From the NCBI GenBank assembly GCA_964455475.1, contig CAYVWL010000004.1, positions 1-34,142 on the forward strand: a DNA stretch of 34,142 nt, in the 5' to 3' direction. The notes under the pieces were generated by a model that saw only the letters and a program-made list of their open reading frames with translations, ran no database searches and was not told the DNA's origin. Source of the DNA: an uncultured Candidatus Saccharibacteria bacterium (lineage in GTDB: Bacteria; Patescibacteriota; Minisyncoccia; Phycocordibacterales; GWA1-40-21). Made by a program: the position numbers and the translations under genes. Below, one piece after another: positions 17,874 to 24,622 of this stretch. How positions within the stretch are numbered: position 1 is the first letter of the stretch; every line of letters begins with the position of its first letter.

Positions 17874-17913
17874 CAACCTCACCCCAGCCCCTCTCCTTGA
17901 CTAAGGAGAGGGG
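17874..17913. repeat. CCCCTCCTT-family palindrome
   Basis: CAACCTCACCCCAG followed by CCCCTCTCCTT-gact-AAGGAGAGGGG. Confidence 0.75.
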
Positions 17914-17920
17914 AATCTGC

Positions 17921-17960
17921 ATGTGTAAATAAGCAAGCTATAGCTTTGTTATTTACACAT
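17921..17960. terminator. AT-rich hairpin between convergent comF and tspO
   Basis: ATGTGTAAATAA...TTATTTACACAT inverted repeat. Confidence 0.5.
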
Positions 17961-17980
17961 CAAAAAATACAATAAAATAA

Positions 17981-18379
17981 TTAGCGATTCAGGAAAGTAA
18001 TAGTGAGTTGCAAAATGGTAGCAAAGGAAACCCAGACCAAATACGGAATCTGCATATACATGATCCACTTAGCATAAGGATAGATAGCCACCATGGCCCA
18101 GATCAGGGTGCCGAGTACGAGCAAAATATCCAGCGCCGCTAAATAATTATTCTGCAAACCAAATTGCAAAGGTGTGAAAGCAAAATTGAAAATCAAATTT
18201 AAAATAAAAGGCAAGAGAATAATAAAAGTAATTTGCTTTTGGATAGCCATAATGAGCACGCGCCCAAAAGAAATAGCAATCAAGACATAGAGCACAGTCC
18301 ACACTGGCCCGAATAGCCAGGATGGTGGTGACCAGGATGGCTTGATCAAAGTGGAATACCAATTGTAAGTGTTGTTCAT
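17981..18379 (-). CDS. tspO: TspO/MBR tryptophan-rich sensory protein
   Basis: WYSTLIKPSWSPPSWLFGPVWTVLY, PYLVWVSFATIL. Confidence 0.93.
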   Translation of the reverse strand: MNNTYNWYSTLIKPSWSPPSWLFGPVWTVLYVLIAISFGRVLIMAIQKQITFIILLPFILNLIFNFAFTPLQFGLQNNYLAALDILLVLGTLIWAMVAIYPYAKWIMYMQIPYLVWVSFATILQLTITFLNR

Positions 18380-18380
18380 A

Positions 18381-18863
18381 TTATTGTTTTGGGGGGATTG
18401 CTCCCGTACAGCGCCAATTTATTTCGGCGGTTTTGGTCTCCTCGCTCACCACACAAGCCGGATTACAATTTGTCGGGCCGGAGTTTAGATTGGCATCGAA
18501 CCACCAAGTTCTAGTAAATTCATTATAAGTGCCAGAGTTCAAACTCTCCCCGCCTTTGATACAAGTTTTTTCCGCGATACCGCGCGCCTCTGCTTCCGTA
18601 ATCAAGCTATTCACTTTAGGGCAAGGAGTAAATTCACACTTTGGCCCCGTCCGCCCCACAAAGGAACCATCCGGACAAGCCTTGGCGTCCATGGTGCAGG
18701 CCACTGGTTTTGTATTGGTTGCGGTTATTGTGGTCGTGGTGGTGGTGGTAGCCATACCATCATCAGGCGGATTTACTAAAAAATTCAACTTCGAAATCCT
18801 AAGACCAACGACAATAATGACTATGAAGACGATAACCATTATTCCGATAATCATATTTTTCAT
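18381..18863 (-). CDS. membrane-anchored Cys-rich exported protein
   Basis: N-terminal TM, Thr-rich linker, ACTMDAKACPDGSFVGRTGPKCEFTPCP module, second 4-Cys domain; ATG at 18863 preferred. Confidence 0.7.
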   Translation of the reverse strand: MKNMIIGIMVIVFIVIIVVGLRISKLNFLVNPPDDGMATTTTTTTITATNTKPVACTMDAKACPDGSFVGRTGPKCEFTPCPKVNSLITEAEARGIAEKTCIKGGESLNSGTYNEFTRTWWFDANLNSGPTNCNPACVVSEETKTAEINWRCTGAIPPKQ

Positions 18864-18927
18864 TTCTTTATTAAAATTAATTTCTAAAGCTTTTATCATT
18901 ATATCATAGGTGAAAATTTTAGACATG

Positions 18928-18957
18928 AAAAAGAGCGTCGTCCGAAGACAACGCTCT
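18928..18957 (-). terminator. intrinsic terminator
   Basis: AGAGCGUUGUC-UUCG-GACGACGCUCU-UUUU. Confidence 0.85.
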
Positions 18958-19101
18958 GAAATTGTCGGGGTGGCCGAGCGAGTAAGACAAGCTCGGCATT
19001 CACCCCAGTAGAGACAGTACCTTGGGCATTATTGTGACAATCGGGGGGCAATTCTGCCTTTATCGCCGACTGTTCACCCAGAGTTCCCGTTCCCTATCTC
19101 T
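18928..19101 (-). ncRNA. unassigned structured non-coding RNA, ~175 nt
   Basis: Own promoter, two long hairpins, cUUCGg terminator, no convincing ORF. Confidence 0.7.
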
Positions 19102-19108
19102 GTTTACA

Positions 19109-19136
19109 AGAATAGCATATTCACGCTAGAAGTCAA
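19109..19136 (-). promoter_or_regulatory. sigma70 promoter for the ncRNA
   Basis: TTGACT-16 nt-TATTCT with TG extension; predicted +1 near 19101, the first base of hairpin 1. Confidence 0.7.
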
Positions 19137-19210
19137 GCCTTTTAGGCACTTTCTTTCATTTTCTTTTCCCCCACGCCAAAATAGCCTTATTTTATAAGGA
19201 TTTCTTGGAA

Positions 19211-20437
19211 TTATAAAAACAACAAGTCACGGTCGAGGTCATCCGTAGCCGTCCCCTTTTCCTTTCGGTTTAGGGCCTGGTGGGTGGAGGCCAAGTGAAG
19301 CACTTTTTTGCCAAATTTTTGCTCCAGAGCGTCAATTTGTTTGTGAACGCAGGCAAATTTATCCGCCTGGGCGCTACCACCAAAGAGATCCCCCTGGCAT
19401 ACCGCACTGGAAACAAGCTCTTGCAAAATCACCCCCGTGGTGCGATACAGAATATTCATCCGGTGCACCATGGGCAGTTTGGACCGGATGAGCGGGAGCA
19501 ATATCTCTGGTGCACTGGTGGGTGTGGTCAGGGTGATGGTAAAAGTGTGATACTGAAAATCCCGTGTCTTTAAAAAGAAAGATACTTTTTTCGGCACTAG
19601 ATTATAATAACGCGCTTTCCGGCAAGCCTCTTCCATATTTTTTGACAGTTGGGAGAGGAGAAAAACTTTATCATTCGTGGGCGGGTGAAAAGTCCGTGTC
19701 TTTTGGATAGAGGAATAAACCGTCTTCGGCGCGCCATCTATTTTCATGAGGTATTCTCCCTGAAGCTCCCGCCAAAGCACTTCATAAGGACGAGACAAAT
19801 TATTTTTCACCCAAGCCAAATCTTTCTTCACAAAATCCCCGGCCGTGATAATCCCCCACCGATTTAAAAACTCCGCCGTTTTTGGACCAATACCCCAAAT
19901 CTTTCCAACCGGCGTTTTTACTAAAAAATTTTCCGCTTTATTTTTTTCTATCACGGTGAGGCCATTTGGTTTGACCCATTTTGAGGCCACCTTGGCTAAA
20001 ACTTTGGTAGGTGCGAGACCAATAGAGACAGAAATATTTAATTCATTATTAATTTCTTTTTTTATTCTCTCCGCCATTTGCAAATAGGTCATTTTAAGTG
20101 GCCGATCCAAACCAGTGAGATCGGCAAAGCATTCATCAATACTATATTCTTCCACATCATCCGCATAACGGCGCACAATATCAAACATCCGTTCGGAATA
20201 AAGGGCGTAAGAAGCATAATCACCGGGCAAAACAATCACCTGCGGAAAATCCCTCTGCACGCGGAAGATAGGCAGACCGCGGATAATGCCAAGCGCCTTG
20301 GCTTCGTAAGAAAGGGCAGAGACAATACCCCGCTCCTCACCGGTCACCACCGGCTTACCTTTTAATTCAGGATTCTTGGCCATCTCCACGCCCACAAAAA
20401 AGGCATCCCCATCCATATGTAAAATTACGCGTTCCAC
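19211..20437 (-). CDS. dinB: DNA polymerase IV (Y family)
   Basis: ILHMDGDAFF, SYEAK, SIDEC, LAKVASKWVKPNG; start moved to GTG at 20437. Confidence 0.93.
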   Translation of the reverse strand: MERVILHMDGDAFFVGVEMAKNPELKGKPVVTGEERGIVSALSYEAKALGIIRGLPIFRVQRDFPQVIVLPGDYASYALYSERMFDIVRRYADDVEEYSIDECFADLTGLDRPLKMTYLQMAERIKKEINNELNISVSIGLAPTKVLAKVASKWVKPNGLTVIEKNKAENFLVKTPVGKIWGIGPKTAEFLNRWGIITAGDFVKKDLAWVKNNLSRPYEVLWRELQGEYLMKIDGAPKTVYSSIQKTRTFHPPTNDKVFLLSQLSKNMEEACRKARYYNLVPKKVSFFLKTRDFQYHTFTITLTTPTSAPEILLPLIRSKLPMVHRMNILYRTTGVILQELVSSAVCQGDLFGGSAQADKFACVHKQIDALEQKFGKKVLHLASTHQALNRKEKGTATDDLDRDLLFL

Positions 20438-20443
20438 CCACCC

Positions 20444-20471
20444 AGTATAGCACAAGGTGAACGTCCGTTCA
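20444..20471 (-). promoter_or_regulatory. LexA-type SOS box next to extended -10 of dinB
   Basis: Palindrome tGAAC-N4-GTTCa at 20458-20471, 5 nt upstream of TGcTATACT. Confidence 0.7.
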
Positions 20472-20477
20472 CTACCC

Positions 20478-20515
20478 ACACAAAGGTCTAACCTTCAAAG
20501 GTGAAACCTTTGTGT
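20478..20515. repeat. tandem AAGGT-N3-ACCTT palindromes
   Basis: ACACAAAGGTCTAACCTT CAAAGGTGAAACCTTTGTGT; related copies at 24908 and 3514. Confidence 0.75.
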
Positions 20516-20518
20516 TTA

Positions 20519-20977
20519 CTACTTAAACAAAATGGGAATTTCGAGAGAGTCGTCATACTGACGTAGATCGGAGGGATTGTCATTTTTCAAAATTAGAAAA
20601 CCACGGTCACCATAGCTTGGCTTGGCGAATTTTAAAGTAGCAGTGAAAGGCACGAATTCCGTGGTCATCCACTCGCCATCTGCCTGCGCCACCCCCTGGG
20701 CGATAATCGCTCCATCCCAATCTGTAAGTACCACCGGAAAACTGCCCTCAAAATACCAACCACCTCTCGCCTCCCCTTTTATAATTAACGGACTGATTAT
20801 TTTTTCATCCGCAAACAGAGAGGAAACTTTTATCAGATCTTTATATTCTACTAGTTTAGTGGTCGGCGGTACAACATCTCCCCCGTCAGTAAAATTGAAA
20901 CGATATATTCCAGCCCCAGCCACAATCAATACCAAAACAGCAATAACCCCGATTATCCAAGAGGTAGTCTTTTTCAT
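20519..20977 (-). CDS. Gmad2-type Ig-like domain exported protein
   Basis: N-terminal TM; SPLIIKGEARGGWYFEGSFPV...WMTTEFVPF...DNPS. Confidence 0.75.
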   Translation of the reverse strand: MKKTTSWIIGVIAVLVLIVAGAGIYRFNFTDGGDVVPPTTKLVEYKDLIKVSSLFADEKIISPLIIKGEARGGWYFEGSFPVVLTDWDGAIIAQGVAQADGEWMTTEFVPFTATLKFAKPSYGDRGFLILKNDNPSDLRQYDDSLEIPILFK

Positions 20978-21012
20978 CTCTCTATTGTATCACACAATCA
21001 ATCTTTCTCTAT

Positions 21013-22044
21013 TTACCCATTCGTACGAATATGCCGATGGAGGGTTCGCATCTTTCGGAGCATCTCCATAACATTGTCCAAAGCTCCATCTTCGTCCTTT
21101 GATTTCATCATACCAAGAGCACGCAATCCGGTATCGCCAAATGTCTTCTTCATTAATCTAGCAATAGGTATTAGATTTCCATTAAGATTTGCCTTTAAAA
21201 ATTCCCTATGAACTTCTTCTTTATTTTGATATTCTTCGGGAAACTCCTTTACTATTTCTTCGCAGACATATTCCACTACCTTTCTCTGCCAATAATAACC
21301 CGCTCCGCCTCCAATACTTTTGTCCACCAAATCAAGCCAGAAGATCTCGTCATCTGGTATACCCCTTTCCTCCGCAATCTTTTGCCTTTTCGCCTTGGAA
21401 TCTTCTTGTTCATATTTATCTTTTTCCTCCTTCAATTCTGGAATATTTAATAGCCTAGGAAAACTTAGCTTTTCCTGCCAAGCCACTACTGCCTCATCTA
21501 AACCGGAAAAATGAGTAACTGATCGTCCTTGCATGTTTTTCTTTCTCGGAGAAAAAACTCTCATGCCACTTCTATATATTTTATTCTTTAACTTTCCTTC
21601 CCTATCTTCATATAACTGCCAGATCTGTCTAGCTTTCATATGCAAGGCTTCATGAAAAGCAACCGTAACAAACATCAACAGACTCTTCCTTAATTCTGAT
21701 GATAAACCGATAGCATATTTGCTCCCTTCATAGGTGCCGGCAGAACTTGTATGGAAAAATTTATCCATCTCTTCCTTCGGTAGAATATGATAATTCTTTG
21801 CCGGAATATCAATCGGTTCTACACCACATTCCTGCAATAGACGATTTGTTTCTTGATCAATAAAGTCTAGGGCGGCTATTTGCTCCGGAGTTTTATCATA
21901 CTCTACAGCCTCAAGCTTCTTGCGCTCACCCTCAGGCATAAGATCTTGTTGCTTAATAAAAATATCTCTTCTCTTTATAGCAAACTCTTCCTTCTTCTCC
22001 TCTGAAACAGCCCCAATGACTTCAAATTTAGGTAAATTTTCCAT
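21013..22044 (-). CDS. hypothetical protein, possible gluzincin-like metalloprotease
   Basis: HEALH plus downstream GLDEA; AT-rich, charged. Confidence 0.5.
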   Translation of the reverse strand: MENLPKFEVIGAVSEEKKEEFAIKRRDIFIKQQDLMPEGERKKLEAVEYDKTPEQIAALDFIDQETNRLLQECGVEPIDIPAKNYHILPKEEMDKFFHTSSAGTYEGSKYAIGLSSELRKSLLMFVTVAFHEALHMKARQIWQLYEDREGKLKNKIYRSGMRVFSPRKKNMQGRSVTHFSGLDEAVVAWQEKLSFPRLLNIPELKEEKDKYEQEDSKAKRQKIAEERGIPDDEIFWLDLVDKSIGGGAGYYWQRKVVEYVCEEIVKEFPEEYQNKEEVHREFLKANLNGNLIPIARLMKKTFGDTGLRALGMMKSKDEDGALDNVMEMLRKMRTLHRHIRTNG

Positions 22045-22051
22045 AAGTAAA

Positions 22052-24622
22052 TTATATCACAGAATTAGCCGTCAGCCTTCTATTCCAGAAGAACTTTAGA
22101 CCCTCAAACCAGATTAGACTAATAAGGACCACGGAAATAATTAACAAAAAATCCTGCGGATGAAGCGGGGCCAGATGGAAAAGCTCGGCCAAAAATGGAA
22201 TATACAGGACAGCCAAAAGACATAAAACAGCAGAAATAAAAACAATAATCAAAATACGGCTGGCCGAAAACAAAATACGGTGAACCCCTTTGCTCCAGGA
22301 TAGATTGATAGCGATGAGCATCAGATTTGATAAGATCAGAGAGACAAAAGCAAAAGAGCGCGCCTCGGGCACGCTGCGTCCAGACTTGATAACATAAACA
22401 TAAAGTAGAAAAACAGCCACAAGCACGCCAAAGCCCTGAATCAGGCTGATGGAGACATTTTTAAAATTAAAGATGGATCGACGCAGGTCCCGCGGTGGTC
22501 GCTTCATAATATTTTTATCTTCACTCTCGGACTCAAACACCGTGGAACAAGCGGGGTCAATGATAAGCTCCATAAAGGCTACGTGCGCCGGCAAGAGAAC
22601 GATCGGTAAATCAAAAAACAAAGGCAAAACGGCCATACCAGCAATCGGCACGTGCACGGCTAAGAGATACCCGATAGAACCGCGCAAATTATCATATATC
22701 CTCCGGCCGAGACGGACAGCACTCACGATAGAGGAAAAATCATCATTGAGTAAAACCAGAGAGGAGGCTTCGCGAGCCACATCTGTCCCCCTTTCCCCCA
22801 TGGCCACTCCGATATGCGCGGATTTTAGGGCCGGCGCATCATTCACGCCATCTCCAGTCATGGCCACTATTTCGTTATTAGCTTTCAAGGCATTTACTAT
22901 CAATAATTTCTGCTCTGGCACAATACGCGCAAAGACATTTATATCTTTTATCTTCTCCCGCAATTGCTGATGATTCATCTTTTCCAAATCTTCGCCGGTC
23001 AGATATTTGTCAGGATTTTTCAAGCCGATTTTTCTCCCAATATACTGTGCCGTTCCTGGATAGTCCCCGGTAATCATAATAATCCGCATCCCGGCCGCAT
23101 ATGTCTCCCGCACAGCCTCTGGCACTGTAGAGCGGACTGGATCCACAAAACCGAGAAGGCCGACAAAATCAAATTTAAAATCATGTTGATTTGTGGGTAA
23201 ATCTTTATCCAAAAAGACGGCCCGCGCCACGCCCAAAACCCGCAGTCCTTTCTCAGACATTTCTCTGACCCGCTCCAGGACAGCCTGGATTTCCTCGGGC
23301 GAGCTGTGGCATAAATCCAAAATCGCCTCCGGCGCCCCTTTGGAAGCGATCAATTTTTCACCTGTCTCTTTTTTCTGCCAGACATGAGACAGGGCCAGGA
23401 GATCGTGACGAATAGGATATTCACGAATCAAGGTGCTACCGGCCTCTACCTTTTCCATATTTTTCAAATACAAGGTCCCCATTTTTCTCAGTTCCCTTTC
23501 CAAGGGATCAAAGGGGTCTTTTTGACTGGAGAGGACACCATATTCAAGGAGAGTTTTAAATTTGTCCGGCAAATCGGTGGAAGCAAAATTACTCAATTCA
23601 TAAAATCCACCATCTGCATACAAACTACTCAGTTCCATTTTATTTAGGGTCAAGGTTCCGGTTTTATCTGTACAGAGCACGGTGGCTGCCCCCAAAGTTT
23701 CTATTGTGGCGGCGCGACGGGTCAGTACTTTTCGTTTGGAAATACGCCATGCCCCCAGTGTCATAAAAATCACAAGGACGATGGGAAATTCCTCTGGCAG
23801 AATCGCCATACTGAGGGTTAGCCCAGAGAGGAGGCCGGTGATCAAATCATTTTGAAACAGGACATAATATAATAGCACCAGGAGGCACAACATAAGGCCA
23901 ACCACCGAGACCACACGCACGATCTTGGTAATCTCTTTTTTCAGAAGAGTATCTTCTTCTTTTATACTTTCCAAGCTTTTGCCGATTTTACCGATCTCTG
24001 TCTTGAGCCCCGTGAAAATCACTTGCGCCACCCCGCGCCCGCTTGTCACCAAAGAACCCGAATAAATAAAAGGCAAATCATCCCCACCTGGACGCTGGTT
24101 TTTTATTTTGCCATCCCATTCCTTTTTTCGCACCGGCATGGATTCGCCGGTGAGGAGGGATTCATCCACCCCCAGATTTTCACAAGATAGGACCACCGCA
24201 TCGGCCGGCACCCTATCCCCCTCATGAATAATAATGAGATCCCCTGTCACCACTTCCCGGCCGGCGATTCGCCTCTGCTCACCGTCGCGAACTACCAGAG
24301 CGCGCGGACTGGATAAATCACGCAAGGCTTCTAGCGTCCTTTCAGTTTTCTTTTCCTGATAAAAAGTGATACCCACGACCACCAGGACGGAGAAGAGAAG
24401 CAAAATAGAATCACCCTTTTCTCCCATGAAAAAATAAATACTGCCGGCCGCCAAGAGGAGTAAAAGCATCGGTTCGGAGAGGACCCGGGCGAGGATGGCA
24501 AAACCACTTTGCTTCCCTTGCGAGGGCAATTCATTGTAGCCCTCGGTTTTCAGAATGGCCTCGGCCTCCATCTCGGATAGCCCTTCATAAGTCGATATTT
24601 CTTTTTTATCTTTATCCTCCAT
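22052..24622 (-). CDS. cation-transporting P-type ATPase (type II-like)
   Basis: TGES, PEEFP in TM4, DKTGTLT, KGAPE, TGDGVNDAPAL. Confidence 0.95.
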   Translation of the reverse strand: MEDKDKKEISTYEGLSEMEAEAILKTEGYNELPSQGKQSGFAILARVLSEPMLLLLLAAGSIYFFMGEKGDSILLLFSVLVVVGITFYQEKKTERTLEALRDLSSPRALVVRDGEQRRIAGREVVTGDLIIIHEGDRVPADAVVLSCENLGVDESLLTGESMPVRKKEWDGKIKNQRPGGDDLPFIYSGSLVTSGRGVAQVIFTGLKTEIGKIGKSLESIKEEDTLLKKEITKIVRVVSVVGLMLCLLVLLYYVLFQNDLITGLLSGLTLSMAILPEEFPIVLVIFMTLGAWRISKRKVLTRRAATIETLGAATVLCTDKTGTLTLNKMELSSLYADGGFYELSNFASTDLPDKFKTLLEYGVLSSQKDPFDPLERELRKMGTLYLKNMEKVEAGSTLIREYPIRHDLLALSHVWQKKETGEKLIASKGAPEAILDLCHSSPEEIQAVLERVREMSEKGLRVLGVARAVFLDKDLPTNQHDFKFDFVGLLGFVDPVRSTVPEAVRETYAAGMRIIMITGDYPGTAQYIGRKIGLKNPDKYLTGEDLEKMNHQQLREKIKDINVFARIVPEQKLLIVNALKANNEIVAMTGDGVNDAPALKSAHIGVAMGERGTDVAREASSLVLLNDDFSSIVSAVRLGRRIYDNLRGSIGYLLAVHVPIAGMAVLPLFFDLPIVLLPAHVAFMELIIDPACSTVFESESEDKNIMKRPPRDLRRSIFNFKNVSISLIQGFGVLVAVFLLYVYVIKSGRSVPEARSFAFVSLILSNLMLIAINLSWSKGVHRILFSASRILIIVFISAVLCLLAVLYIPFLAELFHLAPLHPQDFLLIISVVLISLIWFEGLKFFWNRRLTANSVI

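Follow-up and report, generated by a model that had tools for sequence, protein, structure and literature searches.

A candidate species-specific small RNA gene carried by a recurrent promoter-to-terminator cassette in a patescibacterial genome

Anatomy of the locus

The window, that is, the whole stretch of DNA that was analysed, is 34,142 nt long and represents contig C4 of a 654-kb assembly (G000) that is 95% complete and belongs to a freshwater bacterium with a tiny genome. On its minus strand, positions 19136-18928 combine a consensus-type promoter, a 144-nt two-domain fold and an 11-bp UUCG terminator. The unit is preceded by dinB (19211-20479, minus strand), which is characterized by the Pfam domains IMS, IMS_C and IMS_HHH. 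The hairpin TCCTTATAAAATAAGG on the dinB side, which is followed by CTATTTT (19185-19200, minus strand), was read from the sequence and forms the first part of the block alignment A2 that is described below. Together with its T run (19200-19178), it is terminator-like for dinB and constitutes the left edge of the promoter block. An A-rich block, AAAAGAAAATGAAAGAAAG (19149-19167, minus strand), is found 5' of the -35 element; its AAAAT is invariant and its flanks are mostly conserved in eight aligned blocks. The block resembles an UP element and may function as one.

The promoter scan places the promoter at 19109-19136 on the minus strand, with a -35 element TTGACT (19136-19131), a 16-nt spacer, TG at 19117-19116 and a -10 element TATTCT (19114-19109). 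The A at 19101, 8 nt past the -10 element, is the predicted 5' end of the RNA. Promoters of the type TTGAC-N-TGnTAnnnT occur 32 times in the genome, mostly ahead of genes with leaders, and judged by its motifs the promoter of the unit is of the genome's own strong type. Domain 1 of the RNA is a 92-nt irregular rod (19010-19101, minus strand) on which the minimum free energy (MFE) and centroid structures agree; it is closed by an 8-bp stem, interrupted by internal loops and capped by GGCA-GAAU-UGCC. The predicted domain 2 is a 42-nt hairpin (18966-19007, minus strand) of 7 bp, a 3-nt bulge and a further 7 bp, closed by an 11-nt CU-rich loop. In the fold, a single-stranded 8-nt linker ACAAUUUC (18958-18965, minus strand) leads to the intrinsic terminator (18928-18957, minus strand), whose 11-bp stem (18957-18932), UUCG loop and U run to 18928 are recovered by both the terminator scan and the fold.

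Downstream, 65 AT-rich bases separate the end of the terminator from the likely ATG at 18863 of the next protein gene (18863-18381, minus strand). Its product is Cys-rich and signal-anchored with a Thr-linker, and 18863 is its most likely start. The TspO gene (18379-17981, minus strand) follows. The sequence and the promoter scan reveal a promoter-like site of the next gene at 18898-18931 (minus strand), TTTTCA-17-TATGAT, with a TGaTATAAT box at 18906-18898 inside the AT-rich stretch. The motif TTTTTCATGTCTAAAATTTTCA within this site is similar to the 3' flank of four other cassettes. Since a hairpin with a T run stands before the promoter, a terminator stands behind the RNA and the next gene has its own -10 box, the unit has the appearance of an independent small RNA gene. 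A preliminary description of this DNA, made from the letters alone, had proposed the TTGACT-16-(TG)TATTCT promoter on the minus strand, the cUUCGg terminator and a separate -10 box of the next gene near 18900. All three are present, and the proposal is borne out that the unit is autonomous, with its own promoter and terminator around a strongly folded, non-coding body.

Orthologues of dinB are found in 25 of the 52 other family genomes, and the DNA downstream of each is unrelated to this locus and carries other genes. Of 78 dinB loci, only 2 have a strong promoter in the 500 nt that follow the gene, and a general rule of a promoter behind dinB therefore does not hold. The dinB gene of several relatives lies within a region whose counterpart in the present genome is on contig C13 (G000:C13:8600-16473); here the gene lies on C4 with accessory genes, and its neighbourhood is rearranged (window positions 17900-22100). 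The 343-aa orphan protein encoded nearby is found in one of 15 genus relatives, and the downstream Cys-rich protein has only modular, partial relatives. Because dinB lies elsewhere in the relatives and the 343-aa neighbour is rare, the RNA is seen to sit in a variable, accessory stretch.

The arrangement is not an assembly artefact, since 151-nt contigs from other lake studies are letter-identical to it over both junctions (X7, 18882-19032 and 19062-19212; X5, 18942-19092). Sequencing runs with low shares (0.07-0.22 of sampled words) hold low-coverage pieces of the same organism and unrelated promoter look-alikes, and they were rejected as a sign of a conserved RNA. A dispersed repeat, against which the preliminary description had cautioned, is not at hand, as the RNA sequence is single-copy in the 654-kb assembly.

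Fold, coding potential and relatives of the RNA

The 174-nt RNA folds with an MFE of -76.7 kcal/mol (z -6.42), a value that none of 200 shuffles attained. When the terminator is left out, the 144-nt core reaches a z of -4.26 on the minus strand versus -2.82 on the plus strand, which agrees with the earlier argument that G.U pairs fix the strand. After adjustment for GC, 28 of 6,202 174-nt strand-windows of the genome (contigs C1-C16) are as extreme or more, so the element belongs to the genome's top 0.5% but is not unique. MFE and centroid are one structure, and a competitor to the terminator is absent from both. The helices of the MFE structure are AGAGAUAG/CUGUCUCU, CAGUCGG/CCGAUUG, GGCA-GAAU-UGCC, the second hairpin and the terminator. 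The closing stem, CAGUCGG/CCGAUUG, the apical hairpin and the second hairpin had all been drawn in the preliminary description, but the UGGGU/GCCCA helix that it placed in the middle of the rod gives way to GGG/CCC and GUGA/UCAC. The proposed contact of GACAA with UUGUC can be drawn by eye only, as a 5-bp alternative, and appears in neither MFE nor centroid. The repeat CUGGG(G)UGAA does occur twice, as CUGGGUGAA (19081-19073) and CUGGGGUGAA (19008-18999), but it is statistically unremarkable: three 10-mer repeats with one mismatch are found in the window versus 1.96 expected, which is not rarer than chance.

The longest frame in the unit is 50 aa with a TTG start. This frame and a 26-aa frame both cross the terminator and end beyond the U run, and no GGAGG-type site is seen in the sequence at a workable distance for the frames inside the unit. 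No homologue of the 50-aa frame was found, and the frame itself is absent from the protein collection. The idea of a gene remnant was also rejected: tblastx against the relatives' downstream regions yields only short, scattered matches, none longer than 31 residues (the best at E 7e-4 close to the dinB 3' end), and the open frames are without a Pfam match. The likeness of TVGDKGRIAP to an enolase motif was dismissed as a chance match. The unit thus contains no credible open reading frame, as had been stated beforehand.

A search of the window with Rfam 15 returns four tRNAs as the only matches that reach the gathering score, none of which lies in the locus. The best look-alike in the locus is the terminator hairpin, which scores 23.2 bits against sau-6072 (gathering score 50). 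This accords with the earlier remark that no known RNA motif could be recognised. The model of 6S RNA (RF00013) matches neither the locus (E<=10) nor the whole genome (E<=1), and those of SRP RNA (RF00169, RF01854) likewise match neither. As side observations, RNase P RNA type A (RF00010) is, like 6S RNA, not found in G000 at E<=1, and tmRNA is present at C38:5912-6253.

A further side observation is that no signal-recognition-particle system was found in G000, and the portion of the literature that was searched holds no report on this. The SRP54-type GTPases (Ffh, FtsY; PF00448) and the Ffh M domain (PF02978) are absent from the assembly, in which a scan for G-domain motifs reveals only pilus-type ATPases, L31 and Ndk. 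In a set of 30 genomes from relatives and from the order, many with a completeness of 97-100%, the search for SRP54-type GTPases gave only five weak matches at the P-loop level (at most 22.8 bits). Small SRP RNA was found in none of 53 family genomes and none of 141 order-level genomes. The controls of these searches were positive in 12-14 of 14 well-known genomes.

BLAST searches with the RNA body in 60 relatives gave no match. In 400 order-level genomes they gave only 27 short, chance-level pieces of 16-35 nt (per-genome E 0.002-0.1). The 14 pieces that match the first 105 nt were inspected and are coding or otherwise unrelated sequence; the other 13, outside the inspected set, match the second hairpin, the linker or the terminator. 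In 400 phylum-level genomes four short pieces were found and all were inspected. Three are coding or antisense chance matches, and the fourth is an exact 22-mer (window 19061-19082, minus strand; G447:C1:277291-277312) within a BLAST match of 25 of 26 bases at a per-genome E of 9e-6. It lies in the non-coding DNA of a distant Patescibacteria genome, where it is single-copy and has no other or structural likeness to the RNA, and it may be a chance match.

A covariance model built from the single sequence (R1) finds only the sequence itself in 53 family genomes, that is, none of the 52 others, and has no match in 80 metagenomic dinB loci (469 kb). Four pattern scans of viral contigs were without a match, and blastn against phages and plasmids returned nothing. 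One two-motif pattern gave eight matches in GTDB genome contigs, about the estimated chance number, none of which fits the model at the place of the pattern. By sequence, the transcribed part is an orphan within the genomes and collections searched. As no homologue of the RNA body was found, the searches offer neither covariation nor evidence of selection; with an orphan at a single locus, comparative analysis goes no further.

Parts of the stretch are held by 21 sequencing runs, one of which (X18) is an rRNA-depleted metatranscriptome. In X18 one 151-nt contig matches 18958-19093 over 136 nt with no differences (strand-less), and over 18400-19600 it is the only contig and lies wholly within the predicted RNA. 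By our own estimate, chance alone would place a 136-nt piece inside the 174-nt unit in about 4% of cases. The evidence is a single low-depth contig of assembled reads, DNA may occur in RNA libraries, and the uncovered parts of the 1.2-kb stretch are no evidence of silence. The contig is a hint of transcription, short of proof. As for metatranscriptome coverage bounded at about 19101 and 18928, which had been suggested as a check, one contig lies inside the unit and carries neither strand nor transcript ends.

A scan for target duplexes gave a best energy of -60.9 kcal/mol, compared with -54.9 to -63.7 kcal/mol for the best duplex of each of 12 shuffled RNAs. The scan is crude, with 5' regions taken from 635 gene calls, of which those that lacked 50 nt upstream or contained N were dropped. 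No gene for CsrA (PF02599) or Hfq was found in the genome.

The recurrent promoter block and its cargos

A sensitive self-comparison reveals that 19109-19184 is 75% identical over 77 nt to positions 192-267 of contig C3 of the same genome (E 2.8e-6). A profile of the C4 and C3 copies finds two copies in metagenomic loci, one of which (L105) sits just behind a dinB orthologue, and also weaker ones at C5 and C47. Family BLAST added further copies in G003 (two), G005 and G015. Besides the block at this locus there are seven homologous copies: one on another contig of the genome, four spread over three genus relatives and two from metagenomic relatives. The eight blocks (C4 and C3 of this genome, two of G003, and those of G005, G015, L105 and L102) align over about 100 nt with a mean column identity of 66% (alignment A2), and TATTTT, AAAAT, CTTGAC and TGCTAT are invariant among them. 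The 22-26 nt of the upstream hairpin recur at 92-100% identity in unrelated places of six other family genomes. A degenerate pattern of the block invariants yields 21 matches in 15 of 53 family genomes versus one for the reversed control, and some of the 21 are ordinary promoters such as that of infA.

Each close copy of the block precedes a different, terminator-ended cargo, with lengths from 85 to about 470 nt. The G+C content of every cargo exceeds that of the genome (42%) and amounts to 53% in the RNA described here. In all seven cargos tested, the fold is stronger than in shuffles (z -1.95 to -6.96) and also stronger than in the respective reverse complement. The cargos are unrelated to one another and to this RNA, and those of C47 and C5 in this genome and of G013 align to it with scores no better than shuffles. 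They are mostly non-coding, and some contain very short frames behind perfect Shine-Dalgarno sites, namely those of C3 (21 aa) and C5 (37 aa) in this genome and of G015 (10 aa). Among 53 open frames of seven cargos none exceeds the Pfam cut-off, and the sole weak match is to DUF5397 (E 0.041, 14.1 bits versus a cut-off of 26). Five of seven cassette ends have a short, T-rich motif similar to TTTTGTCCAAATTTT after the terminator. By alignment, the promoter block is homologous across its copies in this genus, and it appears to drive unrelated cargos.

Several other units with related features were observed along the way. A second non-coding unit with the same kind of promoter is located at G000:C47:768-1040 (plus strand) and is conserved across genera (G005:C8, G019:C1, G063:C131; loci L207, L214 and L216). 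It contains a CA-rich stretch AACAACCAAA, a GGAGG site and, later, a CCCCCTT...AAGGGGG hairpin. A three-codon frame (Met-Asn/His-Asp-stop) is present in three of four copies (C47 of this genome, G005:C8 and G019:C1), and none is evident in the 110 nt seen of G063:C131. The C47 unit is about 240 nt long and has an MFE of -96.5 (z -7).

Another cargo family with the same promoter type is represented by G000:C5:3163-3560 (plus strand) and by G013:C1 (locus L205). Its members have a leader with the hairpin GGGACACGG, a AACAACAG-AGGAGG site and a frame of 34-37 aa, and they are clearly related to each other (alignment score 89 versus 35.6 +/- 6.6 for shuffles). The otherwise unrelated cargos at L102:2650-2680 and L105:2175-2205 have a 27-nt motif in common (92.6% identity, E 2.4e-6), which consists of a perfect Shine-Dalgarno site followed by a frame of four or five codons. 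At C9:4771 (minus strand), C14:9406 (plus strand), C25:8374 (minus strand) and C59:1487 (minus strand) of G000, a terminator-like hairpin stands 2-30 nt behind a strong promoter, ahead of the gene; such promoter-proximal hairpins may be short leader attenuators or stabilising 5' hairpins.

Possible roles and comparison with known systems

The unit is probably, with somewhat better than even chances, a species-specific small non-coding RNA gene that is carried as cargo of the genus's recurrent promoter-to-terminator cassette. The cassette would consist of a conserved block of about 100 bp with the upstream hairpin, the A-rich tract and the -35/-10 elements, followed by a variable cargo that folds strongly on the sense strand and exceeds the genome in G+C, a terminator and often a T-rich 3' motif. 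Transcription would start near 19101 from the strong extended -10 promoter and would be ended near 18928 by the efficient intrinsic terminator, yielding an RNA product that is about 170 nt long and comprises two stable domains. This stable, folded RNA may act in trans by binding a partner, either a protein or a nucleic acid. Contact could be made through the purine-rich unpaired GGAAC..AACUCUGG, through the AAUAAUG/AAGGUA loops and through the CU-rich 11-nt loop of domain 2. The preliminary description had likewise suggested a novel small RNA, and this part stands insofar as the unit is autonomous, non-coding and without an Rfam family. Its three guesses at a function found no support: a protein sponge finds only two GGA motifs in the RNA and no CsrA or Hfq gene in the genome, and the 6S-like rod and the terminator-type riboswitch fare no better, as is discussed with the respective alternatives.

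A transcribed cargo without function is a real possibility, although an unlikely one. The control blocks would be maintained or spread, and the 144-nt body would be captured or decaying sequence that has no role. The complete orphan status of the RNA body fits this explanation, as do the variable accessory stretch with dinB elsewhere in relatives, the 343-aa neighbour in one of 15 of them and the modular Cys-rich protein. The cargos moreover differ without limit among the copies, and the duplex scan gave no target signal. The fold argues against it, however, as it lies far beyond shuffles and is stronger on the sense strand, which likewise applies to all seven cargos tested. The G+C content of 53% in a 42% genome is usual for structural RNAs in AT-rich genomes, and contigs of other lake studies have the very same sequence, though these may be from the same species.

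A more far-reaching explanation, which is speculative and distinctly unlikely, is an undescribed cassette system of Paceibacteria. Constant arms, namely the insulated promoter block and the 3' flank, would carry diverse folded RNAs that are swapped, recombination following the natural uptake of DNA being one conceivable route. These RNAs would have a role in conflict, for example as decoys, guides or inhibitors, against hosts, phages or competitors. If true, such a system would explain why the control blocks are conserved and yet every cargo is unique, structured and richer in G+C.

Still less probable is a cis-acting leader, in which the terminator would conditionally stop transcription before the genes for the Cys-rich protein (18863-18381) and TspO (18379-17981). 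The unit lies on the same strand as these genes, its terminator ends 65 nt before the likely start codon, and several strong promoters in the genome run into a terminator hairpin that is followed by a gene. Attenuation would call for an alternative to the terminator, but MFE and centroid coincide and contain no competitor. A separate extended -10 box is positioned between the terminator and the gene, the small internal frames have no usable ribosome-binding site, and a conserved aptamer is missing, as none of the 52 other family genomes matches the covariance model. The riboswitch guess lacks support on the same points: the genomes searched hold no homologue, unlike what a ligand-binding aptamer would lead one to expect, the ensemble shows no terminator alternative, and the next gene has a box of its own.

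A small-protein gene that uses the 9-aa, 26-aa or 50-aa frames of the unit is very improbable: perfect Shine-Dalgarno sites do precede short frames in sister cassettes, but here no GGAGG-type site is present, the 26-aa and 50-aa frames cross the terminator, and neither a homologue nor a Pfam match was found. The least credible explanation is a divergent housekeeping RNA (6S, SRP or RNase P RNA), which the strong promoter and the failure to detect any of the three elsewhere in the assembly might suggest; such RNAs are kept in relatives, whereas this one occurs in none, no Ffh or FtsY gene is at hand for an SRP RNA, and size and architecture do not fit 6S or RNase P RNA. The unit is similar to 6S RNA (RF00013) in its comparable length, strong promoter and look of an abundant RNA. 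It differs in that the model does not match, the ends are not paired, relatives lack it, and two independent domains replace the single rod with its large central bubble.

Regarded as a small non-coding RNA gene, the unit has its own promoter, its own terminator and no coding frame, which are the sequence criteria of a stand-alone sRNA. Like species-specific sRNA genes, it is about 170 nt long, intergenic and flanked by its own promoter (of the sigma-70 type in those genes) and intrinsic terminator. Unlike such sRNAs, it has no target complementarity above chance, and its body is far more paired than that of typical seed-bearing sRNAs. Hfq and CsrA were not found here, and no Hfq, ProQ-type or CsrA partner is known in the lineage. 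An sRNA of the CsrB/RsmZ sponge type was rejected, as the RNA has just two GGA motifs and PF02599 is without a match.

The cassette can also be compared with mobile and repeated elements. Phage morons are autonomous promoter-cargo-terminator units, which the present unit resembles in having its own promoter and terminator, a deviant G+C content and a position between unrelated genes in one genome while being absent from close relatives. In contrast to morons, its cargo is a folded non-coding RNA instead of a protein gene and its promoter block is a conserved, repeated module; a prophage context was not seen at the locus. Correia/NEMIS-type elements are promoter-bearing miniature repeats, and here as well a short, conserved, promoter-carrying block recurs at several places in related genomes. 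The block differs from them in that a unique cargo and a terminator always come next, rather than an abutting host gene, and no terminal inverted repeats or target duplications were found for it. IS110 bridge RNAs are encoded beside a DEDD-type IS110 recombinase; this class was rejected, as the seven neighbouring proteins scanned contain no such domain. TIGR arrays, in the parts of the source consulted, consist of 5-15 units with two alternating repeats of 8-12 nt and 9-nt spacers beside a Nop-domain protein (PMC12045711). A TIGR guide-RNA array was rejected on this description, since the 174 nt contain no such periodic repeat. A Nop domain is not matched by Pfam in the neighbouring genes, with the proviso that the Nop domain of Tas may escape Pfam.

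The non-coding RNAs of Patescibacteria, which are ultra-small and uncultivated, are almost unexplored, and a full-text search, within the portion of the literature it reached, found no account of small RNAs native to this group or of promoter-cargo-terminator cassettes occurring naturally in it. Should this RNA and the cargos of the sister cassettes prove functional, they would represent a pool of lineage-specific RNA genes in genomes that are shorn of most regulation. The conserved promoter block could also supply genetic tools for these bacteria with a strong promoter that is ready for use. As a minor observation on the DNA behind dinB, a metagenomic relative harbors a SAM-I riboswitch (RF00162) directly after its dinB orthologue (L102:5329-5439; 53.7 bits, E 2.8e-10).
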